Shown here: in pieces, positions 8,154-21,680 of the stretch
How the letters are laid out: every line of letters starts with the position of its first letter
Position numbering within the stretch: position 1 is the first letter of the stretch
NCBI RefSeq assembly: GCF_000020025.1
Contig: NC_010628.1
Coordinates: 3,360,001-3,392,000 of the forward strand
Length of the DNA stretch: 32,000 nt
From: Nostoc punctiforme PCC 73102
GTDB taxonomy: Bacteria; Cyanobacteriota; Cyanobacteriia; Cyanobacteriales; Nostocaceae
Direction: 5' to 3'
Position numbers and translations under genes: made by a program
Notes under the pieces: generated by a model
The model's input: the letters and a program-made list of their open reading frames with translations, nothing else
What the model was told of the DNA's origin: nothing
Databases searched by the model: none

Positions 8154-8618
8154 ATGGCGAAAGAAATAGAGCGGAAATTTTTAGTGAAAGGAGATAGCTG
8201 GAGAGGATTAGTTGAAGGTAGTGTATATCGTCAAGGATACATTGCCACAAAAGACAAAGCGGCTGTACGCATACGTATAGTAGGGGAAAAGAGTTATTTG
8301 ACTATTAAAGGCCCCAGTATAAAATATTCGAGATTAGAGTTTGAGTATCCTATTCCTGTTGAAGATGCTCAAGAAATGCTTGAGGCATTATGTGAACGTC
8401 CCTTTATAGAAAAAACCAGATATAAAATCCAATCGGGTGGTTTGATTTGGGAAATAGATGAGTTTGATGGTGTTAACAAAGGATTAATCTTGGCAGAAGT
8501 TGAACTGAATGATGAAAATCAACAAATTGAACTACCAAGTTGGATTGGACAAGAAGTTTCTGATGATTCCAGATATTTCAACAGCAATTTAGTAAAACAC
8601 CCTTTTTCGCAATGGTAA
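8154..8618 (+). CDS. CYTH domain protein (triphosphate tunnel metalloenzyme, CyaB/ThTPase-like)
   Basis: The N-terminal EIERKFLV matches the ExExK signature of CYTH domains. Length is 154 aa. Confidence 0.85.
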   Translation: MAKEIERKFLVKGDSWRGLVEGSVYRQGYIATKDKAAVRIRIVGEKSYLTIKGPSIKYSRLEFEYPIPVEDAQEMLEALCERPFIEKTRYKIQSGGLIWEIDEFDGVNKGLILAEVELNDENQQIELPSWIGQEVSDDSRYFNSNLVKHPFSQW

Positions 8619-8639
8619 GGGACTTGCGTAAAAATAAAG

Positions 8640-8945
8640 TACCAGTAAACCGAGTTTCGACTTACCTCGGCTCCGGTTCCATCGAGCGAAGTCGAGATGC
8701 TCGGCACGAGTCGCTCAACTCTCGATGGCTGAGGGTTGAGCGCAGCGATGTACTGAGCGCAGTCGAAGTGTCGAAACCCGTCTAGTTGGGATACTATTAA
8801 CCCGCAGATCCCTAATGGCGAAAAGGGACCATCCACTTTTGGAATAAACACCGGGCGATTGGAAATCGCGGACTCTCTAAAACCCGCGCAGGCGGACGAA
8901 AGTTTGTATAGCCCATCCCATAAAGCATTCGACGCAGAATCTGTT
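8640..8945. repeat. Composite of highly structured short dispersed repeats (MITE-like debris)
   Basis: Nested hairpins, for example CCATCGAGCGA...TCGCTCAACTCTCGATGG (8679-8727). GAGCGNAG..CGA units are repeated, and there is a GCGGACTCTCTAAAACCCGCGCAGGCGGAC...TGTATAGCC module of a type I recognise as widespread in Nostoc intergenic DNA. The 145-aa minus-strand ORF (8519-8956) is a translation of these repeats. Confidence 0.5.
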
Positions 8946-9349
8946 GTTTTAACCATTGAGGATAAAAATTATACTTGTTCTTTATTTTTTTGAGAAAGTT
9001 TTCGCCACAGACTTAACTCTCGGAATGAGTAACATTAATAATTTTTAACAAACTCTTGTTTTTTAGGGCAATCTATGCAATTCTCATAAGTGCATACTAC
9101 TTTAAGTTTATCGATTTACAGTATTTAAATCGATAAATTATCTGAATTAGCCAATAAACTCAAAATTTAGTGCCAAATAAACTTTTAGCCTCTATTAACT
9201 GACTTTTCACGTTATATGGAAAAGTCTACCAAAAACCTAACCTCCCTTCCCCAACGCGGGAAGGGGGGAAATTCAGGAGTGTTAATGAGTGAATTACCCC
9301 AAATTAGTTTTTTTGAGGTTGGGGTTTCCAATCTCAAAAAAGGTCTTTT

Positions 9350-9508
9350 ATGAATAAAACTGTCAAGGAACTCACAATCAATTTAGTGGCATTAAATATA
9401 GTTTTATTAAGCACACTCGGTCTTTTCTGGAAAATCTTAAATCGGCGAAGGAGTCCAATTAGGTCGAGAAAAGGAACCCAAAACTCAGAAGCTAAACAAG
9501 CTACTTAA
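9350..9508 (+). CDS. Possible small single-TM protein (52 aa)
   Basis: ATG at 9350. Sequence MNKTVKELTINLVALNIVLLSTLGLFWKILNRRRSPIRSRK... has a hydrophobic helix followed by a basic tail. It is below the ORF-track cutoff and has no clear SD. Confidence 0.3.
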   Translation: MNKTVKELTINLVALNIVLLSTLGLFWKILNRRRSPIRSRKGTQNSEAKQAT

Positions 9509-9638
9509 CTATCCACAAGTGAGAAATTTTATTAAAAAACAATATTAGTGGCAAATAGTAAGTGTATTTTAAATGCGAATGAAGGATGAGAATTTATTAC
9601 TTCTTCTTTCAGAAATTAGGACTTACTAAACTTAAGCT

Positions 9639-9869
9639 GTGACATTCATGGAGAGTAAACTTATGTTTTCTGGACAAATTGAAAGAGAATGTTTATATGG
9701 AGAAAATTGGACAATTTCGCAAAAAACTAAATTACCAGATCATCTACAGTTATTAGTGGATCGAGAAGAAGTAGGATGCGATATCTGGGAATTGCAGAGC
9801 CAGGAGTCTGGCGATCAGCCGATTTATCGAAATCTTAATGAGGCTTCTGCTGTGCCACGGCGTAAATAA
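9639..9869 (+). CDS. Hypothetical protein (76 aa from GTG; alternative ATG starts at 9648 and 9663)
   Basis: Only an ORF of normal-looking composition in an otherwise repeat-filled gap. No family recognised. Confidence 0.35.
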   Translation: MTFMESKLMFSGQIERECLYGENWTISQKTKLPDHLQLLVDREEVGCDIWELQSQESGDQPIYRNLNEASAVPRRK

Positions 9870-10419
9870 ACCACCAATTTTACATGAACGAAACGCCTCC
9901 GATATAGGAATTCCGCCTTCTTTGCGCGTCTCATAGATCGTTATTCAACAAGTACTTAACCGACTATTCCATATTTTGGTGCATCATAATGAGTTCTAAA
10001 GAGCATACTGTTCTGACCTGACGCAACCAAGTACCGTTTTAAATTTAGTGTAGACGCGATCGCGTTGGCGCAGCCTCTCGAAGAGAAGCAGCTTATCGTA
10101 AGATATTGCTTGTGGTTTAGCAGTGGCCAATGTCTACTACAATCAGCCACTACTGGCTGATATGGGACATATTAAATATCTCTGTCTAGCAGGTGGAATT
10201 TATGAGTCTTGTGCAACTTGTTCGTGAGTCGACTGTATTACGAGAAACAGTGTTGAACATTGCACTAGTATTTGCAGGCTTGAATGCTATCTGAGTTACT
10301 CTAGTTTTTCGACTGGAATCTCCTCCATATAATATCTCTAGCTATTTCATGCAAAATCGAGTTCATCCTGATAAATCTTCCCAATTTGTTTTACCTAGCA
10401 AGAGAAGGAATCAATATTA

Positions 10420-11487
10420 ATGGCACATCTGTTTGAACCATTCAAGATTCGTGAAGTTACCTTCCGTAACCGCATTGCTGTTTCACCCATGTGTCAATAT
10501 TCCAGTACAAATGGATATGCTAATGATTGGCACGTTATTCATTTAGCTTCTCGCGCAGTAGGCGGTGCGGGTATAGTGTTCACAGAAGCAGCAGCTATAG
10601 AACCGCGTGGGCGCATTAGCCCGCAAGATTTGGGAATCTGGTCAGATGCACATATAGAAACTTTAGCCAAAACTGTGGCATTGATTCATAACTTTGGCGC
10701 TGTTGCAGGGATTCAACTTGCTCATGCAGGTAGAAAGGCCAGCACTGCCAAACCCAGTAAGGGAGGGAAAACGCTGGATGAATCTCAGGAAGGTTGGCGG
10801 CCCTTAGTTTCGAGTAGTGCGATCGCCTTTAGCCAAGATAGTCCAGTTCCAGAAGCCCTAAGTCTTAAGGGAATTCAGGAAGTTATTGATGCCTTTGTCC
10901 AAGGTGCTAAACGTTCTCTGCAAGCTGGTTTTAAGCTAGTGGAAATCCATGCGGCTCACGGTTATCTACTCCACCAGTTTCTCTCACCCCTTGCTAACCA
11001 ACGGCAAGATGATTATGGTGGTAGCTTTGAAAATCGGACTCGTCTGCTCAGAGAAGTTGTTCAAGCAGTTCGAGAGGTTTGGCCCCAGACAAATCCGCTC
11101 TGGGTACGTATTTCTGCCACCGATTGGGTAGATGGGGGTTGGGACATTGAGCAAAGTATCGCTTTAAGTGACAAGCTTAAGTCTCTAGGAGTTGATCTCA
11201 TCGATACTTCATCAGGGGGAATTATACCGGGTGTCAAGATACCAATTCAACCTGGTTATCAGACTCAGTTTGCCGAACGCATCCGCCGCGAAGCCAATAT
11301 CCATACAGGAGCCGTTGGCTTAATTACAGCCCCTGAAGACGCTGACGAGATTATTCGCACAGAAGTAGCCGATATAGTGCTGTTAGGACGTGAACTACTC
11401 CGCAATCCTTATTGGCCGCATCTGGCAGCTAAACAGTTAGGACACGATAAACTCTGGCCTGTTCAATACGATCGAGCTTGGCTATGA
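10420..11487 (+). CDS. NADH:flavin oxidoreductase, Old Yellow Enzyme family (YqjM/NamA-like)
   Basis: FRNRIAVSPMCQYS, HLASRAVGGAG, EIHAAHGYLLHQFLSP and GRELLRNPYWP are hallmark OYE (YqjM subclass) motifs. Confidence 0.9.
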   Translation: MAHLFEPFKIREVTFRNRIAVSPMCQYSSTNGYANDWHVIHLASRAVGGAGIVFTEAAAIEPRGRISPQDLGIWSDAHIETLAKTVALIHNFGAVAGIQLAHAGRKASTAKPSKGGKTLDESQEGWRPLVSSSAIAFSQDSPVPEALSLKGIQEVIDAFVQGAKRSLQAGFKLVEIHAAHGYLLHQFLSPLANQRQDDYGGSFENRTRLLREVVQAVREVWPQTNPLWVRISATDWVDGGWDIEQSIALSDKLKSLGVDLIDTSSGGIIPGVKIPIQPGYQTQFAERIRREANIHTGAVGLITAPEDADEIIRTEVADIVLLGRELLRNPYWPHLAAKQLGHDKLWPVQYDRAWL

Positions 11488-11582
11488 TGTTGCCTGTACT
11501 TAATTTACTATTGGGCGTTAGGGGAAATTCATAAATTACCCCTATCTGAAAATCAGGGCTTGAGACATTGTTGGCGTAAGTC

Positions 11583-11735
11583 CTGGATAATTCAATACAG
11601 TTCAGTTAAGCATCTCTTTCTTCTCTCTGCGTTCTCTGCGCCTTCTCTACGAGACGCTACGCGAAGGCGGTTCGTAAAAAAAACGACTTTGGTAACAGAG
11701 TTTTAGCCTTAACTGAACCGTATTGCTGGATAATT
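11583..11735. mobile_element. MITE: 133-bp element (11593-11725) with 18-bp terminal inverted repeats, flanked by a perfect 10-bp target-site duplication
   Basis: TIR-L is CAATACAGTTCAGTTAAG (11593-11610). TIR-R is CTTAACTGAACCGTATTG (11708-11725), and 17/18 positions are complementary. CTGGATAATT occurs immediately outside both ends (11583-11592 and 11726-11735). The interior carries the CCTTCGCGTAGCGTCTC dispersed motif. Confidence 0.65.
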
Positions 11736-11845
11736 AAGCTAAAAATATTTTAATTTGCATCCTCAAAAAAATGAATCTCTTGTGGGGTGGGAATCTTGCC
11801 CGCCCTGGTTGTGCAAATTAAATACGCGACAGCTTAGAAATTAAT

Positions 11846-12667
11846 TTATAAGCCTTCTTTGGCAAGTTGGGCTTTTGCCTGTTGCCACAAATTTTCTAGC
11901 TCATCCAAACTGTAATCAGAAAGGGGGCGATCGCAAACTGCCTCCATTTTTTCTAACCTTTGAACAAATCGCTGATTTGTACCTTGCAAACCAGCACTAG
12001 GGTCAAGATTATGCCAACGGGCTAGCTGAATAACTGCAAAAAGTAAATCGCCTAATTCTGCTTGTTGTCGCGCTGGTGTTTCCTCAGCTAAAGCCTGTTG
12101 AAATTCACCCAATTCTTCATGAAACTTATCCCAAACGCCCTGAATATTTTCCCATTCAAACCCAATAGCAGCAGCCTTTTGAGAAATCTTCATCGCTGCT
12201 GTCAATGGGGGAAGGGTGCGCCCATAACGACCGAGTTTAGCACTAAGTTTTTGCGCGTCTGGGGATGGTTCGCCTTTTTCCTGCGCTTTGATTTGTTCCC
12301 AATTTTGCCGCACCTCATCCACACTGGCTACTGACACATCACCAAACACATGAGGATGACGGCGAATCAACTTTTGGGAAATCCCCTGAGTTATTTCTTT
12401 GAGAGAAAATTGTCCAGATTCGCTAGCGATTTGGGCTTGTAATACCACTTGTAATAATAAATCGCCTAATTCTTCTGCGATCGCCTTCTGATCTCCACTC
12501 TTAATTGCATCCACCACCTCATAAGCTTCTTCAATCACATAAGGCGTAAGCGTTTCGGCAGTTTGCGCCAAATCCCACGGACAACCACCATCAGGCGATC
12601 GCAATTTCGCCACCACCTCAATCAATTCCTGCAAAGCTGCCAAAGTCTCAACTTTGTCACTTGTCAT
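11846..12667 (-). CDS. mazG: Nucleoside triphosphate pyrophosphohydrolase MazG (tandem MazG domains)
   Basis: 273 aa. GGCPWDLAQT, EEAYEVVDAI, ELGDLLLQV, RRHPHVFG and a second ELGDLLFAV domain are canonical for MazG. Confidence 0.9.
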   Translation of the reverse strand: MTSDKVETLAALQELIEVVAKLRSPDGGCPWDLAQTAETLTPYVIEEAYEVVDAIKSGDQKAIAEELGDLLLQVVLQAQIASESGQFSLKEITQGISQKLIRRHPHVFGDVSVASVDEVRQNWEQIKAQEKGEPSPDAQKLSAKLGRYGRTLPPLTAAMKISQKAAAIGFEWENIQGVWDKFHEELGEFQQALAEETPARQQAELGDLLFAVIQLARWHNLDPSAGLQGTNQRFVQRLEKMEAVCDRPLSDYSLDELENLWQQAKAQLAKEGL

Positions 12668-12688
12668 TTGTCATTTGTCCTTTGTCGT
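12654..12688. repeat. Five tandem heptamers (TTGTCAY-like; ATGACAA on the minus strand) spanning the gene junction
   Basis: TTGTCAC TTGTCAT TTGTCAT TTGTCCT TTGTCGT. Related ATGACAA copies occur at 7414-7427 and 15538-15551. Confidence 0.7.
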
Positions 12689-13291
12689 TTTGCCGTTGCT
12701 CTTTCTGGTAACTGTAGCTCGACGAGTACCGCGACTTGTAACTTTCCGCTTCTTCATTTTGCCACTAGGAAGCAACCCTCGAACCCCTTGCTTTCGCACG
12801 CGCTTGTATGCCGAACCACTCCAATCGCTGAGAGAATGGCTCATTGCACCAAGTTCCAACCCTAAAAACAGGGCGATATATTCAGTATCATATTGCAGGA
12901 GCGATCGCCCCACAGTTTGTCCCAAATCTTGCCAAGTAAAACTCAGATTCCATAATTTTTCGGCAATTGCCAAAACTAAAATTGCCAAGATAGCTAGCAA
13001 ACACCCTAGATAAAGTATCCGCAGAATCGTGCCAATAATCGGCCCGTGGGATAAAAAAGAACGATGCCGCAGACTTTTTTGATAAGGTAGCCAAATCCAA
13101 CGCAAGAAACCCCAGCGTTGAAATTGCACAGAGTAAATATCCAAATCAGGGCCAAACATCAGCCCTCCAAATAGAAACCCGCCTGCAACCAACAAAGTCG
13201 CATTGCTACTGCGAGTCTGCCAGAAAGTAATGCCCGCCACCAACGGCAGAGCATACATAGTAATGCGATCGTGCGTCCGACCAGAGGGCAT
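12671..13291 (-). CDS. Membrane protein resembling the DUF2227 putative metal-binding family, with a Lys/Arg-rich C-terminal tail
   Basis: N-terminus MPSGRTHDRITMYALPLVAG, several TM helices and an HSLSDW motif. It lies 3 nt upstream of mazG on the same strand, which suggests an operon. Confidence 0.7.
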   Translation of the reverse strand: MPSGRTHDRITMYALPLVAGITFWQTRSSNATLLVAGGFLFGGLMFGPDLDIYSVQFQRWGFLRWIWLPYQKSLRHRSFLSHGPIIGTILRILYLGCLLAILAILVLAIAEKLWNLSFTWQDLGQTVGRSLLQYDTEYIALFLGLELGAMSHSLSDWSGSAYKRVRKQGVRGLLPSGKMKKRKVTSRGTRRATVTRKSNGKTTKDK

Positions 13292-13434
13292 CCTGAATCC
13301 TGTTAGCGATAGCGGGGCTTTTAGCCCGTGCTGAGTAACTTAATACTGAGCCAGTATAAGAGAAAAAAAGATTTTCCCAAAACTACTAGCGCAATGCAAA
13401 ATCTTCTGCTATATTAGTTAAGGATTGGTCAAAC

Positions 13435-13507
<73 letters not shown>

Positions 13508-14555: not shown

Positions 14556-14667
14556 ATTAGAATCAAATTATCAAATATTCACGTCTATTAAAGTAATAGA
14601 TAGGGAATAAAAGTGAAACCTAATAAGTTTCTCAAGACTTCATGATTTGAGTGTGAGTGTATCTAAA

Positions 14668-15183
14668 ATGAAAAAACTGATTTATCTTGACTGGGTGCAT
14701 CGCTTAAAAATACTCCTTACTGGTACAGCACTGTCTTTAAGTGTTTTTACTACTACTGGAACGAGTCAAGTTTGGGCAAATTCCAAAGATCAAGTAATTG
14801 CCCAAACAATCGAGACATTACAACAATCAGATCGGCGCTGGATTCAAATTGACCTTTCAAAGCAACGATTAATAGCTTGGGAAGGTGACAGAGTAGTTTA
14901 TGGAAGTGCTATTTCCTCTGGTAAAAAAGCTACTCCCACTCTTGTTGGTACTTTTAAGGTTCAATCTAAGTTCAAAACTACGCGAATGCAGGGAGAAAAC
15001 TATAATGTTCCCAACGTTCCTTATGCGATGTTTTATGAAGGGAATTATGCTATTCACGGAGCTTATTGGCATAAGAGATTTGGCACTCCAGTAAGCCACG
15101 GCTGTGTGAATATCGCACCCAAACATGCAAAATGGCTATTTCAGTGGGCATCAGTAGGGACACCGATAGTCATCCAGAAATAG
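14668..15183 (+). CDS. L,D-transpeptidase (YkuD domain) with signal peptide
   Basis: The catalytic motif HGCVN sits in ...GTPVSHGCVNI.... The start was chosen at ATG 14668 (MKKLIYLDW...); the ORF track begins at an upstream TTG (14647). Confidence 0.85.
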   Translation: MKKLIYLDWVHRLKILLTGTALSLSVFTTTGTSQVWANSKDQVIAQTIETLQQSDRRWIQIDLSKQRLIAWEGDRVVYGSAISSGKKATPTLVGTFKVQSKFKTTRMQGENYNVPNVPYAMFYEGNYAIHGAYWHKRFGTPVSHGCVNIAPKHAKWLFQWASVGTPIVIQK

Positions 15184-15714: not shown

Positions 15715-16254
15715 ATGCAATCCTGGATTCGTAGTGGTGGGATTCGTTCTTCCAAAACTTTTTGTACAGGTGTGGCGCTGATGGTGGTGGCTTTATTTTC
15801 TTGGTCAGCACCGTTAGCAGGCGATCGCCATTCTACTACAGCGATCGCTGCGTCAGTGGATGAAAATGGCATCACTGAGTCTGATATCAGCCAAACATCC
15901 CAACCTCGCTGGATTGAAATTGACTTGTCAGAACAACGGTTACGTGCATGGGAAGGCAAAAAACTTGTTTATTCATACCGTATTTCTGGAGGGAAGCGAT
16001 CAACTCCCACACCCATAGGTAGATTTCGGATTAATTCTAAGTATCGCACTCACCGGATGCGAGGCAGGGGCTACAATATTCCTGATGTTCCTTACACAAT
16101 GTATTTTTACAGAGGCTACGCCATCCACGGCGCTTACTGGCATAATCGTTTTGGCACTCCAGTCAGCCACGGTTGCGTAAATTTACCTGTTAAGCAAGCA
16201 CGCAATGTTTACAATTGGGCTAGCTATGGGACTTTAGTAGTGGTGCGGAAATAA
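15715..16254 (+). CDS. L,D-transpeptidase (YkuD domain), paralog of 14668-15183
   Basis: Collinear with the upstream paralog over the YkuD domain (WIEIDLSEQRLRAWEG ... YAIHGAYWHNRFGTPVSHGCVNL). It has an N-terminal hydrophobic signal-like segment. Confidence 0.85.
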   Translation: MQSWIRSGGIRSSKTFCTGVALMVVALFSWSAPLAGDRHSTTAIAASVDENGITESDISQTSQPRWIEIDLSEQRLRAWEGKKLVYSYRISGGKRSTPTPIGRFRINSKYRTHRMRGRGYNIPDVPYTMYFYRGYAIHGAYWHNRFGTPVSHGCVNLPVKQARNVYNWASYGTLVVVRK

Positions 16255-16950: not shown

Positions 16951-17080
16951 AAATAACTCGCCTCGAATTAGAAGAAGCGTAGGCGTAGCTCGTCGTGGAC
17001 ATCGCTCTATAGCAAATACCAAATTATAGACATAAATCATGTCTATAATAGACACTATCCTGAATAAAAGAGGTAGGAGA

Positions 17081-17371
17081 ATGAACTGGAAAATTGCAGA
17101 AGCGAAACAGAGGTTCTCCGAACTAATTCATGCTGTAACTAAAGAACCGCAACTCATCTACAATCGCAATGAACTGGTGGCTGTTGTTGTTGAAGCTGGA
17201 ATGTTTGAGGAATTTTTGGCGTGGCGCAAGCAGGGCGAAAATATTTCTCTAGCTGATGTTTTCAAAGAACTACGCCAGATAGTTGTTGAAGAAGATTATA
17301 TCCTCGAAGTCCCCTCCCGCCAAGACCGTCTTAACCCTTTCGCTGATGCCATCGATGACTTTTCTCTGTGA
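17081..17371 (+). CDS. Type II antitoxin, Phd/YefM family
   Basis: MNWKIAEAKQRFSELIHAV... is the characteristic N-terminus. GGTAGGAGA lies directly upstream of ATG 17081, whereas the track start at 17039 lacks an SD. The gene overlaps the following PIN gene by 17 nt. Confidence 0.8.
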   Translation: MNWKIAEAKQRFSELIHAVTKEPQLIYNRNELVAVVVEAGMFEEFLAWRKQGENISLADVFKELRQIVVEEDYILEVPSRQDRLNPFADAIDDFSL

Positions 17372-17750
17372 CACTAACATTATCAGCGAATTAGTAAGAC
17401 TCCAACCTAACTCTGGTGTACAGAAATGGGCAGAAAGAGTTTCTTCTATAGTTTTGAGTGCGATCGCCGTTGAATAAATATTTTACGGATTGACATTCAA
17501 GCCCAACCCTATAATTCAAATATGCTTCGAGAGCTTTTTAGAAAATAACTGTCAAGTATTGCCTATCACGATTGAAATTGCCAAGCGCTCCGGTGAATTG
17601 CGAGGTCAACTAAGATTAAGTGGGAAAACACATACCCAAGCAGATATGATGATTGCTGCTACTGCTCAAATTCATCAATTGACTTTAGTAACGCGCAACA
17701 TCCGGGATTTTGATGGCTGCGGTATCCCACTTTTAAATCCTTTTAGTTAA
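17355..17750 (+). pseudogene. vapC: VapC (PIN domain) toxin interrupted by a single in-frame TAA at 17475-17477
   Basis: ORFs 17283-17477 and 17490-17750 are in the same frame. Joined from ATG 17355 they read MTFLCDTNIISELV...SAIAVE*IFYGL...ADMMIAATA...TRNIRDF, a complete PIN/VapC with its acidic residues and one stop codon. Confidence 0.8.
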
Positions 17751-17762
17751 ACGCGCAATAGT

Positions 17763-19361
17763 TTAACTCAACTGTGCCACAAGTTGATTTTCCAAAAGCG
17801 TGTCATTTGTTAACAAATCTTCAACGGTAATTCGTAAAAAGCGTTGCTCATCAACTAGAAAGAGAATTTTTATGCGATCGCTTCCAGGATATCCGGCTGG
17901 TGTCAGTTGGGCAATTGTTCTTGCACCTTCTTGGTCGTTGAGGGGTTTAACGCTGGTTTCATTATTATCCAGACGGCGAGTAATTAAGCGATCGCCATCA
18001 AAATAAACTTCGGTACTACCCGTATCTGCTCCCAATTCTCCCATAATCAATTCAATACTAGGTTGATTTTCCAAAGAAGCACCTAAGACTAATTCCACTG
18101 GCTGACTCATTGGATATGCCTGTCCAGCTTTAATCAGAGAATGCCATTTGTGACGCTGATTGCGGCGATCCCAGTAGCGGATACCATAGCTGTGATACAG
18201 AAAGTCTTTGATTTGTATCCCTTGTGCTAACTGTAATGCACCTTGAGCGATCGCTTCAAATGGACGTTCGCAACGGATTTTTTCTGGCTCAAAATACTGT
18301 TTTATCCATGTCTGCACTGCTGGTAATTGCACGGTTCCACCAACTAACAAAACGGCATTAATATCAGGAAGTTCTATCCCTTGCCGTCTTGCTTGCTGCA
18401 ACAGTGTCGTCATCGATTCATCCAATAACTCAAAAAATGCGTGTTCTTTGAGGATATTATCAAAAGTATCCCGGTTTAATTCCAATTCATAGCTTTCAAA
18501 TGTTTCATCATCAAAATAAACTTCACTAGCTTGGTTTTGAGTTGATAGCTGAATTTTTACCCGTTCTGCCAATCGTGTTGTCAAGGGACTTACCGCCAAC
18601 TCTTGAGTTTTGGCAAAGTAATCTACCAACCAATTATCAATATCAGTACCGCCTAAATTTTGCCCAGCTTTCGCCAGGACACGGGCAGTTTTAACTTTTT
18701 GTTTTGAATCTTCAGCCAGAGACTTATTCCCCCACTTGAGGAGAAATCCCAACGGCTTTGTAGTTGCTTGCACGCCTTGATCCAACCGGACAAGGGACAA
18801 ATCTAAAGTACCGCCGCCGAAGTCAATTACCAAGAGAATTTCTTGATCTGCTAAACCATAACCCAAGGCTGCGGCTGTGGGTTCATCCAGCATTCGCACC
18901 TGTTCGACGGGAAGGGATTGGCAAACGTTTCCCAACCAGTGACGATAAGCTTCAAAGCTGTCTACGGGTACGGTTAACACGAGAGAATCTAACCCACCTT
19001 GTAGGGGTGCTAGTTCTTCAATTACTTTGGTGAGGAACCATTGTCCTACTTGTTCAAAGGTGACAATTTGCCCATCTAATTCGGGTAAGAATCCTTGGAT
19101 ATCTGCACCAATACCGCGTTTGAAACTGCGGAAAAATCTAGTTTCGCCTTTGAGGTCAAGACCCTGATCGCGTACTTGTTGCCCGACTAAGACTTGATTC
19201 TGGCTTGCGTCTTCAACGTAAACCAAGCTGGGAATCAGTGGCGGATTGAGACTTTGTTTAATTGATAAACCTGGTAGAGTAAGGGTTTCTGGCTGTTGGG
19301 TTACGGGGTTCCAACGAGCAATGACTGTGTTGCTAGTACCAAAATCGATTGCGATCGCCAT
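17763..19361 (-). CDS. Hsp70 family protein, short non-canonical form (532 aa; NBD plus a beta-rich C-terminal region, no helical lid)
   Basis: IDFGTSNT (phosphate-1), DEPTAAALGYG, VIDFGGGTLDLS (phosphate-2) and LLVGGTVQLPAV (adenosine motif). Confidence 0.9.
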   Translation of the reverse strand: MAIAIDFGTSNTVIARWNPVTQQPETLTLPGLSIKQSLNPPLIPSLVYVEDASQNQVLVGQQVRDQGLDLKGETRFFRSFKRGIGADIQGFLPELDGQIVTFEQVGQWFLTKVIEELAPLQGGLDSLVLTVPVDSFEAYRHWLGNVCQSLPVEQVRMLDEPTAAALGYGLADQEILLVIDFGGGTLDLSLVRLDQGVQATTKPLGFLLKWGNKSLAEDSKQKVKTARVLAKAGQNLGGTDIDNWLVDYFAKTQELAVSPLTTRLAERVKIQLSTQNQASEVYFDDETFESYELELNRDTFDNILKEHAFFELLDESMTTLLQQARRQGIELPDINAVLLVGGTVQLPAVQTWIKQYFEPEKIRCERPFEAIAQGALQLAQGIQIKDFLYHSYGIRYWDRRNQRHKWHSLIKAGQAYPMSQPVELVLGASLENQPSIELIMGELGADTGSTEVYFDGDRLITRRLDNNETSVKPLNDQEGARTIAQLTPAGYPGSDRIKILFLVDEQRFLRITVEDLLTNDTLLENQLVAQLS

Positions 19362-19920
19362 ATTTTATATTTATTATCTCGCACGAAGAGGCTAAAGCTG
19401 CTTTCTTTGTGATTATTCTCTATAAGTTACCAAGAATGCAAATGCGTCCATAGGCTTGCTTTTTTGCATCCCAAGCCAGATATCGATTCAGTCCGTTGCA
19501 ACGAAGTGTTAGCACAGTTAGACAATTGGCTTGTCAGAAAGCCTTCTTTTGGACAGTCTACCGCGCTACAATCCCTATTACTCCATTGAAAAACGCGCCA
19601 CTTAAAAGTTATTACGAATAACTATCAATTAAGAAATACATCCATCTTGGCTCAATGCTAAATAGTTAGTCTGCGATGCCTGCGGTTTTCTCGTTGCGAT
19701 CGCGGTCATTGTCTAATCCGTTACTGAAAATTAACTGTATCTCTGACTGCGTTAGAACTTTGGCGCGCCCGTGCCAATTTATTTTCATAGGGTCTATAAA
19801 GACCCTATGATCCGCAGCCTACAACCATTTGACACCCAATTAGTAACAATTGCTGGACCTAGATTAGGGAAAAGTCGTCAAAATCTTATCATGCAGGTGG
19901 CGACATTCGGTGAGTTTAAG

Positions 19921-19960
19921 AGCGATCACTATTCTTTTCCAAGACGGGTGATCGCTTTTT
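19921..19960 (+). terminator. Rho-independent terminator with no convincing upstream gene
   Basis: AGCGATCAC (18-nt loop) GTGATCGCT, followed directly by a T-run (5 consecutive T, the first of which closes the stem). Confidence 0.55.
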
Positions 19961-20022
19961 AACTATCTATTGGGTACTCTAACCTCAGAGTTTTCTGTAA
20001 ATAAAATTAGAAGGAAAAAATC

Positions 20023-20976
20023 ATGAGTAGTTTTTCTCAAAATCAAGAAAGCTGGATAAGCTATGAAAAAGGTTATGAACCATATATAGGAATAATGACA
20101 GCAGATAAACTGGAAAAAGCTTTTGAAAGAACTGAAAAAACTTTTAATCAAGCTCTTATTGAAGAAGATTCTAAAAGATTACTGGATATTATGAACAGTT
20201 TGAAAAAACATAATAAATTTTTCAGATTACCTAGTATTGCATACGTAGAAATTGAAAGAGAAGAAGATAATGACGATGATAATCCTATACGAAACAATTA
20301 CATAATAGGAGGCAGGCATAGAGTAACTGCATTACTGAACTTAATGGAAAAATGGAATAAAGATAAATATCATTTTGAAGTTCAGGTAGAAATGAGAAGA
20401 GTCAATGATTTTTTGGATATTATTGAATTAATTATTGCAGATAACGAAGGAAGAAGTATGTCAAAAAGTGAAGAAATTTACTTACGGCAGCTTCAAGACA
20501 TTTTACCTTTAATTCAAGATCCTAATATAACTTTTTCTCAATTTATAAATCAAATTTTAAATAATAACGCAGTCAGCAAAAAAGGTAAAGAAAACATAAT
20601 ATCTGCTTATGCCGATTACCAAAAAAACAATCTAGGTTTTAATACAATTATCAAATTACACGGTACTAAAACATATACACAGTTAATAATTAAATCTCTG
20701 TTAAGTAATCTTTTAAATAAAAAACCTCAATTAGGAAAATGGGATGGGATAAAGCTAGAACGTTCAATAAAATGGTGTTGGGGAGGTTATAAAGAAAGCC
20801 CAATTACAAATATAATTAACAAATCAAATATTACTTGGCGTAGTAAAAATAAGCCATTTATAGCAACATTACGGGAAAGTCAGAAATTAAGTAATGGTGA
20901 CATTTATATAGGTAGATGCTACAAGGAGCTAGCAGATTATGCGGTAGAAGAATGGGAGTTTGCTAATAAGCCTTGA
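20023..20976 (+). CDS. ParB/Srx-superfamily (ParB N-terminal-domain-like, DGQHR-like) protein; low-GC orphan
   Basis: 317-aa ORF. NNYIIGGRHRVTALLNL resembles the ParB/DndB Gly-Arg box, and IIADNEGRSMSKSEEIY resembles the ParB ENxxRxxLxxxE segment. GC is about 28-30% by hand count of two 60-nt lines, against ~47% in one line of the adjacent hsp70 gene. Confidence 0.65.
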   Translation: MSSFSQNQESWISYEKGYEPYIGIMTADKLEKAFERTEKTFNQALIEEDSKRLLDIMNSLKKHNKFFRLPSIAYVEIEREEDNDDDNPIRNNYIIGGRHRVTALLNLMEKWNKDKYHFEVQVEMRRVNDFLDIIELIIADNEGRSMSKSEEIYLRQLQDILPLIQDPNITFSQFINQILNNNAVSKKGKENIISAYADYQKNNLGFNTIIKLHGTKTYTQLIIKSLLSNLLNKKPQLGKWDGIKLERSIKWCWGGYKESPITNIINKSNITWRSKNKPFIATLRESQKLSNGDIYIGRCYKELADYAVEEWEFANKP

Positions 20977-21135
20977 GGTAAATAAATATAGTTTTTGGAA
21001 ACGCTAGTCTTCATAATCTATCCCTGAACTCTAACCCCAGCATTACATAGATATCCCCCTCAATTGTTTAATCCATAACACATCCCTCCATACAATCTAA
21101 AAGATTTCAAAATGCGACACATCATTAAGCTCAAG

Positions 21136-21172
21136 ACCTACATCGCCTTCACACGCGGTTGTAGGTTTTTTT
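21136..21172 (+). terminator. Candidate rho-independent terminator downstream of the ParB-like gene
   Basis: ACCTACA (t CGC cttcacac GCG gt) TGTAGGT, followed directly by six more T (seven consecutive T counting the last stem base). Confidence 0.45.
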
Positions 21173-21368
21173 ATATGCCCCACCAGCTGACAAACCCCAC
21201 GCTACAGAATTGTGTGATCGCTTCAAGTCTAAATCCAACTGCCTCAGTCACACAGAAACCAACAGAGCGTTGAAAATTTTGAGATTACTAGCTAATGTCA
21301 ATAAAACAACGTAAGTGACCAAAAAGCTGATTATTTCGTTCACCAATCCAGGCGATTAACCCAGATTT

Positions 21369-21563
21369 ATGAATAAGACACATAGCAAAACTACTTACGT
21401 AGATTATATTGTTAAACTTCCTGAGCGATCGCTGGAGGAATTTTGTCGCTGGGTATACCGCTTCATGGGCAATGCTCAGTTCATCTATCCTCAACATCTA
21501 GCTGAACAACACCAAAAATTTGCTCATGCATTAATAGATTGGTATTCTTCCAAAGCCATATAA
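21369..21563 (+). CDS. Hypothetical protein (64 aa)
   Basis: Preferred over the overlapping antisense ORF 21288-21497 on composition only. No family recognised. Confidence 0.3.
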   Translation: MNKTHSKTTYVDYIVKLPERSLEEFCRWVYRFMGNAQFIYPQHLAEQHQKFAHALIDWYSSKAI

Positions 21564-21645
21564 ATTAAGATAATTGACCCACATGACTTTAATGCTGGGG
21601 GAAAGTAAAAGTAGAGGCACTGGCTAATTAGTACAAAAACCTAAT

Positions 21646-21667
21646 CTAACCCGGAGTTCCGGGTTAG
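21646..21667. terminator. Hairpin between convergent small ORFs (possible bidirectional terminator)
   Basis: CTAACCCGG (agtt) CCGGGTTAG, a 9-bp perfect stem. Flanking U-tracts are poor. Confidence 0.35.
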
Positions 21668-21680
21668 TAGTAGTTCACGC

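Follow-up and report, generated by a model that had tools for sequence, protein, structure and literature searches.

A solitary AT-rich Nostoc gene with a ParB/Srx-like N-terminal domain is related to a cyanophage early gene and lies in the apparent remains of a plasmid-like element

The window analysed here, a 32,000-nt stretch of Nostoc punctiforme PCC 73102 (NC_010628.1, forward strand, 3,360,001 to 3,392,000; positions below count from its first letter), carries at 20023-20976 an open reading frame (ORF) coding for a 317-aa protein, whose N-terminal part likely belongs to the ParB/Srx superfamily and is homologous to an early protein of Saffermanviridae cyanophages. On balance, we lean towards the view that this ORF is functional and horizontally mobile, a gene carried as cargo by a plasmid-like or integrative element of Nostoc; the element would have lodged in a hypervariable intergenic hotspot and then decayed around the gene. 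An earlier sequence-only reading of the region had proposed a recently inserted single-gene cassette instead; its apparent special feature, a bracketing insertion scar, does not hold. The gene and its parts are the following (P0008 is a remote relative described below).

20023-20976, plus strand: ParB-like ORF, 317 aa, ATG start, GC content 0.289, GC content at third codon positions (GC3) 0.196
20161-20487, plus strand: N-terminal ParB/Srx-like domain (residues 47-155), with homology to the Saffermanviridae cyanophage early protein
20308-20322, plus strand: GGRHR motif (residues 96-100), unchanged throughout the Nostoc, P0008 and phage families
20440-20460, plus strand: DNEGRSM motif (residues 140-146), its D, N and R invariant, matching the ENxxR box of ParB
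20503-20973, plus strand: C-terminal ~157 residues, rich in K, N and I, predicted to be helical and kept by purifying selection
19991-20987, plus strand: unit shared by all independent copies, 87-97% conserved, comprising a 32-nt 5′ untranslated region, the ORF and ~11 nt past the stop

The composition of the ORF sets it apart from its surroundings. The 22 window ORFs of at least 150 aa have a mean GC content of 0.424 ± 0.041 and a GC3 of 0.347, and no 950-bp stretch in the 32 kb is lower in GC than the one beginning at 19951; the gene is thus as strikingly AT-rich as had been noticed from the letters alone. An AAGGA box lies at 20011-20015, 7 nt 5′ of the ATG. Pairwise comparison of eight copies gave ratios of nonsynonymous to synonymous substitution rates (dN/dS) of 0.09-0.36, with the N- and C-terminal halves alike, and therefore the ORF is under purifying selection along its full length and is a real gene. 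Its foreign composition, together with contexts that differ among Nostoc genomes (see below), bears out the suggestion that it was acquired horizontally.

The gene is also an orphan, as had been supposed. A word-indexed search of 5.8 billion proteins returned six close clusters, with identities of 85-98% and without exception from Nostoc or from samples containing it, while an exhaustive HMMER scan of 1.84 billion representatives gave three hits, of which the new ones were one fragment and the remote P0008. The full-length protein matched nothing significant in Pfam, NCBIfam or PADLOC, and it had no match in INPHARED phages (tblastn) or in IMG/VR scans. The gene family itself is found only in Nostoc. 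P0008, the sole remote relative, is a 184-aa protein that aligns with the window protein over residues 80-155 (E 1.9e-4) and shares precisely both motif regions with it; expanding the search from P0008 and running a permissive core-profile search found nothing further. P0008 comes from a 3.2-kb contig (L095) of a metagenome-assembled genome (MAG) labelled 'Candidatus Thorarchaeota' (GCA_011776415.1), but its relatives in turn are proteins of cyanophages; a viral origin or mis-binning of the contig is probable.

These relatives, found by tblastn with P0008 at E 2e-9 to 1e-4, are encoded by T7-like cyanopodoviruses infecting filamentous cyanobacteria, namely Pf-WMP4 (gp07, YP_762637), Lbo240-yong1 (UOL49099), Pbo-yong3 (UVD33228), LPP-1, Dor1, JingP1 and Anabaena phage A-4L (ORF09R, YP_009042779). 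Aligning the Nostoc family with the phage family by hhalign gave a probability of 96.7% (E 3.7e-10) over window residues 47-155. The two families thus share a homologous N-terminal region of ~110 residues in which GGRHRxxA and DNxxR(S/T) are invariant; their sizes are similar (323-366 aa for the phage proteins against 317 aa), both are encoded by solitary genes and both belong to filamentous cyanobacteria or their phages. In contrast, the C-terminal halves of the phage proteins are unrelated to that of the Nostoc protein, and the phage gene lies in the early region, preceded in Pf-WMP4 by an annotated host promoter, whereas that of Nostoc is borne by the chromosome or by plasmids. In the literature, the phage early proteins are called hypothetical (PMC10140849). 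A single relative was labelled 'DNA-sulfur modification-associated' by one depositor.

Both of the ParB-type peptide segments that had been picked out in the product are present, as residues 94-107 (IIGGRHRVTALLNL) and 137-153 (IIADNEGRSMSKSEEIY) of the 317-aa protein. Aligning the eight members together left G-G-R-H-R-x-x-A and D-N-x-x-R...E invariant, and GGRHR corresponds to the GxxR/DGxHR arginine motif of ParB/Srx domains. When family members were scanned against Pfam one by one, three of the eight matched GmrSD_N/DUF262 (best E 1e-3; E 0.0096 for the window protein) and others matched ddrB-ParB and DUF6551, while five of the eight matched PHROG 1033, named 'ParB-like partition protein' (best E 2.1e-5); the only families matched repeatedly in such scans were those of the ParB/Srx clan. 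Local hhalign runs aligned GGRHR on DGQQR of real DUF262 proteins, on GERRFRA of ParB and on GGCHRYAA, although the DUF262 and ParB alignments were not significant, with thin templates and hand-entered ParB sequences; the value of 77.7% over 59 columns obtained with sulfiredoxin, whose template sequence was also entered by hand, is to be read as indicative only. The order of strands and helices predicted in a low-confidence AlphaFold model is compatible with a ParB/Srx domain. Profile searches of the PDB yielded only spurious matches, such as PYL receptors recognized through 'IIGGxHR', which we discarded.

Residues ~47-155 are therefore likely, judging by motifs and profiles, to belong to the ParB/Srx superfamily, and at this level the earlier call of a ParB N-terminal domain stands, by concordant sub-threshold profile matches and invariant motifs, although no curated cut-off was reached. 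We place the 317-aa protein in no specific ParB/Srx family. Its C-terminal ~160 residues had no detectable relative outside the Nostoc family, and the C-terminal 158 aa gave no Pfam match beyond noise and none to DUF1524/HNH or any other nuclease; the region holds a single His.

The gene occurs in at least five different contexts, so that tabulating the neighbourhoods of its homologs, as had been proposed, revealed contexts that differ between Nostoc genomes and not one conserved syntenic position. A plasmid-like contig, L003, carries an intact copy of the gene together with ParA, a ribbon-helix-helix (RHH) protein, an intact FimB-like recombinase and a DUF3854-D5_N primase, the ParA and RHH pair standing as a separate unit 3.5 kb from the gene. 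At L005 the gene lies beside a 427-aa integrase, and at L001, L004 and L089 it lies downstream of chlL-chlN, among toxin-antitoxin-like pairs. No ParA is adjacent to the gene in the window or in nine other contexts. On L003, a six-gene operon at 8267-13473 (minus strand) lies just downstream of the gene and convergent to it; it includes a 484-aa protein with a GQGSGKS P-loop, and no product of the operon has a Pfam match.

The DNA around the gene in the window was compared with that of the other copies, with plasmids and with 80 Nostocales loci around the orthologous hsp70-like gene. The features concerned are the following.

17763-19361, minus strand: hsp70-like gene
19445-21680, no strand assigned: hypervariable hotspot of intergenic DNA, flanked by the hsp70-like gene and the 79-aa gene
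19547-19695, minus strand: orphaned upstream/promoter region of a gene for a 200-aa FimB-like tyrosine recombinase, matching Nostoc plasmids
19788-19696, minus strand: N-terminal stub of 31 codons (MKINWHGRAKVLTQSEIQLIFSNGLDNDRDR), left from the gene for a site-specific integrase of ~213 aa, a plasmid-type tyrosine recombinase
19696-19867, no strand assigned: element U, the integrase stub and its 5′ region, a gene-associated segment
19910-19989, plus strand: leader B, common to L003, L007/L008 and L037
19976-19988, plus strand: 5′ 13-mer ACTCTAACCTCAG, part of leader B and not a junction
21024-21216, plus strand: segment D, absent from all other gene copies and syntenic loci
21028-21040, plus strand: 3′ 13-mer ACTCTAACCCCAG, found in the window alone, beyond the limits of the conserved gene unit
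21136-21172, plus strand: terminator-like hairpin (ACCTACA...TGTAGGT and a T run), inside D and conserved in plasmid pNsp_g
21681-21920, minus strand: 79-aa gene

The comparisons show DNA of plasmid type on both sides of the gene. Upstream, 19547-19706 matches the DNA just upstream of the FimB-like recombinase gene on Nostoc plasmids and on L003; the recombinase gene itself is deleted in the window at a recurrent breakpoint, 19542/19543, at which L037, L034, L021 and others keep a 33-codon stub of it. The integrase stub lies 235 nt upstream of the ORF. Its intact counterpart of ~213 aa, which matches the Phage_integrase family (E 7e-25), is encoded on 119 cyanobacterial plasmid records, 43 of them from Nostoc, and on plasmids it neighbours partition genes. 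The earlier statement that no ParA, integrase or transposase accompanies the gene is thus right for ParA and for an intact integrase, but it overlooked this recombinase stub at 19788-19696. The window has no functional recombinase, whereas intact integrases stand beside the gene copies of L003 and L005.

Element U was found beside the gene in the window, L001, L004/L089, L005, L006 and L037, and downstream of it in L090/L091, as well as without the gene at the same hotspot in L034, L013 and L041. In 1.56 Mb of Nostocales DNA it occurred only beside gene copies and at this hotspot, which argues that U is not a generic repeat. Its integrase stub is always cut after 15-34 codons, at differing points. 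Every chromosomal stub seen of the 213-aa plasmid integrase is shortened (L001, L005, L006, L034, L037, L089, L090/L091 and the window), and in L090/L091 the stub lies downstream of the ParB-like gene and convergent to it, not upstream.

Leader B holds a HIP1-type hairpin (arms 19913-19936 and 19941-19964), ends at its 3′ side in the 5′ 13-mer and, in the window, abuts a deletion of ~270 bp relative to L003. It precedes the gene in L007/L008 and L037, and on L003 it lies 270 bp further upstream, where the 13-mer reads ACTCTAACCTGAG. A partial copy of leader B seen by eye downstream of the gene in L003 was not significant (p 0.17), and matches to leader B in L089 and L001 proved to be generic HIP1-type terminator sequence.

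Downstream of the gene, 21036-21180, within D, has 75% identity with plasmid pNsp_g from Nostoc sp. ATCC 53789 (L094, 3001-3147), on which the homolog of D and a copy of U are 529 bp apart with a gene-free interval between them. The stem of the hairpin at 21136-21172 differs by a compensatory change between the window (ACCTACA/TGTAGGT) and pNsp_g (CCCTAC/GTAGGG), and the hairpin is likely to be the 3′ end of the gene's transcript here. The segment of ~150 nt at 21036-21180 may code for a small RNA or be no more than a terminator; it had no Rfam match, and a promoter scan of the region was at chance level.

The hotspot in which these segments lie was delimited by the 80 loci. Homology to the window ends at ~19444-19542 after hsp70 and resumes variously between 21217 and 21680. 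At three loci (L011, L023 and L028) window positions 19445-21680 are replaced by ~100-160 bp of mutually unrelated spacer, and these minimal sites share no core sequence. Only one of the 80 syntenic loci, L037, has the gene at this site, whereas L034 carries other AT-rich cargo there (a 260-aa protein and a DUF488 protein, GC 0.31), preceded by the same integrase stub. Scans for tRNAs and for Rfam families revealed nothing near the gene that could have been an integration target, the closest tRNA being a tRNA-Val at 13435. The content of the hotspot differs in more than 40 closely related Nostoc genomes (L009-L051) and includes a PIN-like gene in L037; recurrent breakpoints are 19542/3, 21217, 21296, 21382, 21592 and 21680. 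A 64-aa ORF at 21369-21563 (plus strand), conserved in L034 (7097-7291), has a WCX domain match below the cut-off (E 5e-4, 20.8 vs 23.9 bits) and may be a C-terminal remnant of a WYL-type regulator. Two loci from MAGs labelled 'uncultured Acetobacteraceae' (L026) and 'Chroococcales cyanobacterium' (L044) have an hsp70-like gene 95-96% identical to that of Nostoc and are probably mis-binned Nostoc contigs.

Comparison with L037 dates the insertion. The chromosomal flanks of the two loci are 91% identical and the element 89%; the element having diverged about as much as the chromosome around it, the insertion predates the split between the window and L037 and is not recent, which makes the earlier notion of a recent insertion doubtful. 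The history of the ORF is more complex, as its closest copy is that of L006 (97% identical, 93-100% per 100 nt, with 0.08 synonymous substitutions per site, dS), while the two have 78% identity in U and different leaders. With homology between copies confined to the ORF unit, this similarity is accounted for by replacement of alleles through gene conversion from incoming DNA, as are, in part, the sharp edges of the unit.

What the protein does can be approached through its superfamily. Solo ParB/Srx domains found on phages and plasmids without ParA have been interpreted as NTP (nucleoside triphosphate)-regulated DNases, and such domains, for instance in Osa, GmrS, ParB-methylase and DdrB-like ParB, are NTPases and/or non-specific nickases (PMC5512222). 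Because of this precedent, the Nostoc protein would most likely be an NTP-regulated DNA-binding or nicking protein acting in conflict between mobile element, phage and host. It would work by itself, as an NTP-binding or NTP-hydrolysing switch controlling DNA binding or nicking, and would serve exclusion, defence or anti-defence rather than partitioning. That the gene was kept while the recombinases rotted suggests that it would either benefit the host or preserve itself. The DdrB-like ParB domain of phage and plasmid polyvalent proteins (PF18763) resembles the Nostoc domain, which it matches weakly around the arginine motif (E 0.025-0.14), but the match stays below the cut-off, and genes for DdrB-ParB are typically late or virion-associated whereas the phage relatives of the Nostoc protein are early genes.

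Several observations weigh against a decayed plasmid-like element with a ParB/Srx-type cargo gene. No match to the ParB clan reached a curated cut-off (16.5 vs 33.2 bits for GmrSD_N, 15.2 vs 27.6 for ddrB-ParB); sequence-profile searches of the PDB with three profiles found no ParB; and the AlphaFold models are of low confidence, with a mean predicted local distance difference test (pLDDT) score of 39.9 for the full length and 55.8 for the N-domain; Foldseek searches of the PDB with these low-confidence models gave no hit below E 0.6. In PADLOC-DB v2, the protein and eight N-domain relatives matched 0 families at E ≤10, and the gene has no conserved partner, so that the role in conflict is a purely putative one. 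Selection on the gene is not universal, as two copies are damaged: that of L004 has a nonsense codon at position 190 and that of L001 has lost its 3′ end (the copy of L089 is intact in the same context as that of L004). The gene is absent from all 72,556 PLSDB plasmids (tblastn), and its plasmid origin rests on one metagenomic contig, L003, and on the flanking DNA. Finally, the sharp ends of the shared unit, at -32 and +11, have an origin for which the decay of a carrier does not account.

Among the other roles that we weighed, a single-gene defence against phages or plasmids after the manner of GmrSD, BrxU and SspE, in which a DUF262-like NTPase sensor would be joined to a new C-terminal effector, is possible though unlikely. 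GmrSD_N/DUF262 (PF03235) is the best Pfam match of the N-domain, it shares with it the ParB/Srx superfamily and an xGxxR arginine motif, and its members, like the Nostoc gene, are single genes in variable regions; the Nostoc gene, solitary, AT-rich and patchily distributed, sits in variable hotspots among toxin-antitoxin genes and has been selected and kept while its carrier decayed. However, the matches are below threshold and the Nostoc motif is GGRHR, not DGQQR. Moreover, unlike GmrSD, BrxU and SspE, the Nostoc protein has no C-terminal match to DUF1524, to a His-Me or HNH nuclease or to any other nuclease, and no PADLOC model matched either the full protein or its N-domain relatives. Its closest real homologs are phage early proteins, and this points to the offensive side as much as to the defensive one.

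It is improbable that the gene is a relic of plasmid maintenance, coding for an NTP-dependent DNA clamp for partition or transcription, of the ParB, KorB or VirB type, that has been left without a role in the chromosome. The motifs do resemble those of ParB CTPases (GGRHRVTA and DNEGR in Nostoc against GERRxRA and ENLQR in ParB/Spo0J/KorB, ParBc), PHROG 1033 bears the name of a partition protein, the flanks are plasmid-derived, and the integrase, where intact on plasmids, neighbours partition genes. Canonical ParB differs in having a ParA partner, a ParBc domain, a helix-turn-helix (HTH) and parS, whereas for the Nostoc protein no match to ParBc (PF02195) or to any HTH family was found at E ≤10, no parS is known, hhalign against two ParB proteins was insignificant, and no copy has an adjacent ParA, L003 having its own ParA and RHH pair as a distinct unit. 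A useless relic would not keep a dN/dS of 0.1-0.3 in chromosomal contexts with recombinase stubs, the survival of the gene beside two decayed recombinase genes speaks against its being purely a relic of partition, and the gene is missing from the 72,556 sequenced plasmids. Osa and sulfiredoxin, minimal ParB/Srx proteins, belong in the same comparison, in which FGGCHRYAA offers a further parallel to GGRHRVTA.

A further step removed is the proposition that the N-domain has a different, new fold, shared by the Nostoc and cyanophage proteins, in which the two motifs arose by convergence. The failure of every ParB-clan match to reach its curated cut-off, the absence of ParB from the PDB profile searches, an uninformative Foldseek search and the insignificant hhalign results with real DUF262 proteins and with hand-entered ParB sequences all fit this, yet we hold it to be quite improbable: independent libraries and independent members indicate one superfamily and nothing else consistently, the alignments place GGRHR on the catalytic arginine motif every time, and the modelled order of strands and helices appears to fit ParB/Srx.

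The sharp limits of the shared unit, which is almost exactly the ORF (-32 to +11) amid unrelated flanks, invite comparison with a selfish gene of the homing-endonuclease kind, spreading by DNA nicking and repair copying. Nickase activity is possible for ParB/Srx domains (PMC5512222), the decay of some copies recalls a homing cycle, and the discordance with L006 between ORF and flanks has the expected form. That discordance is, however, also expected from gene conversion in the sole homologous stretch, the integrase stub U stands alongside the gene in six contexts and implies that a larger unit moved at least originally, and the insertion sites have no common target sequence. This makes homing very unlikely. 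To our knowledge, no homing endonuclease of ParB type has been described.

The single-gene cassette, supposedly placed by recent site-specific recombination or transposition and marked by the 13-mer pair as target duplication or att remnant, fares worst and is scarcely credible, for although the gene is foreign and mobile and a 12/13 repeat brackets it, the homology between copies ends before the 3′ 13-mer, the 5′ 13-mer is internal to leader B, which is conserved also on the plasmid-like L003, the 3′ 13-mer lies in a separate plasmid-derived segment, and the element is as diverged from L037 as its flanks are.

The 13-mers themselves are present at 19976-19988 and 21028-21040, as had been reported; their pattern matches only these two sites in the window, where 0.04 would be expected by chance, and it is no dispersed motif, with three hits in 1.53 Mb of related DNA. 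A direct match of 12/13 between the 150-nt flanks arose in 6 of 400 shuffles (p about 0.015-0.02), and this result, for a repeat chosen after the fact, is suggestive but weak. The DNA shared between copies ends at ~20985-20988, and that of L037, at the same site, ends at 21008, where an unrelated 840-bp insert begins, so that the 3′ 13-mer lies outside the shared DNA in every comparison, 40 nt past the unit and 20 nt past its end in L037. The 5′ 13-mer ends 2 nt before the shared unit, inside a leader that is conserved elsewhere too, and pNsp_g reads ACTATTTCCCAG at the position of the 3′ 13-mer (9/13 with one gap, by eye). None of eight other contexts has a significant repeat flanking the gene, and the empty site with a single ACTCTAACCYCAG that was to be looked for in relatives was not found among the 80 syntenic loci, in which the only 13-mer is the 5′ copy of L037. 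The repeat is a coincidence between two unrelated plasmid-derived segments.

With the decayed plasmid-like element as the setting, the Nostoc and cyanophage proteins may be tentatively seen, though we think this rather doubtful, as a new family of ParB/Srx fold acting for both parties in the conflict of phages with filamentous cyanobacteria. The Nostoc version, with its own unique C-terminal domain, would be a self-sufficient exclusion or defence factor, such as an NTP-gated nickase sensing incoming phage or plasmid DNA, and the phage version would be a counter-weapon or an ancestor. If the protein is an NTP-gated, DNA-acting exclusion factor, it would be a compact addition to the ParB/Srx conflict toolkit in organisms with few characterized defences. 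The comparison also gives a conserved, unannotated early gene of Saffermanviridae, including Anabaena phage A-4L, a homology link and, tentatively, its first fold assignment; a relative of that gene moves about on plasmid-like elements of Nostoc and, once its carrier has decayed, persists in hotspots of the chromosome. The significance is modest: a known superfamily gains one uncharacterized new member, the genomic setting is of an ordinary kind and, as it stands, the gene is one more AT-rich ORFan in mobile-element debris of a sort common in Nostoc genomes.

Some further observations concern the plasmids on which the 213-aa integrase is intact and the remainder of the window. Intact-integrase loci include these two.

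L092 (pNPM10), 1141-2204: intact-integrase locus
L104, 1879-2882: intact-integrase locus

On plasmids, the intact integrase is usually adjoined by a small divergent gene, which in pGLO7428.02 is followed by ParA and a CBASS operon (cyclic-oligonucleotide-based anti-phage signalling system); pNPM10, which is linear and bears a protelomerase, has AT-rich divergent genes (GC 0.31-0.35, compared with 0.455 for the integrase). We considered U as an integron-like slot for AT-rich cargo, which fits the window, L034 and pNPM10, and rejected it, as five further plasmids have mostly a small divergent gene there, once with ParA.

Elsewhere in the window, the stretch 17039-17750 (plus strand) holds a gene for a Phd/YefM antitoxin (110 aa) and, after it, a PIN-domain toxin split into two ORFs, 17283-17477 and 17490-17750, which looks like a disrupted VapC. 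Two tandem paralogous ORFs at 14647-15183 and 15715-16254 (plus strand; 178 and 179 aa) have in common a ...YAIHGAYWHxRFGTPVSHGCVN... region, whose resemblance is presumably to the catalytic motif of YkuD-type L,D-transpeptidases.

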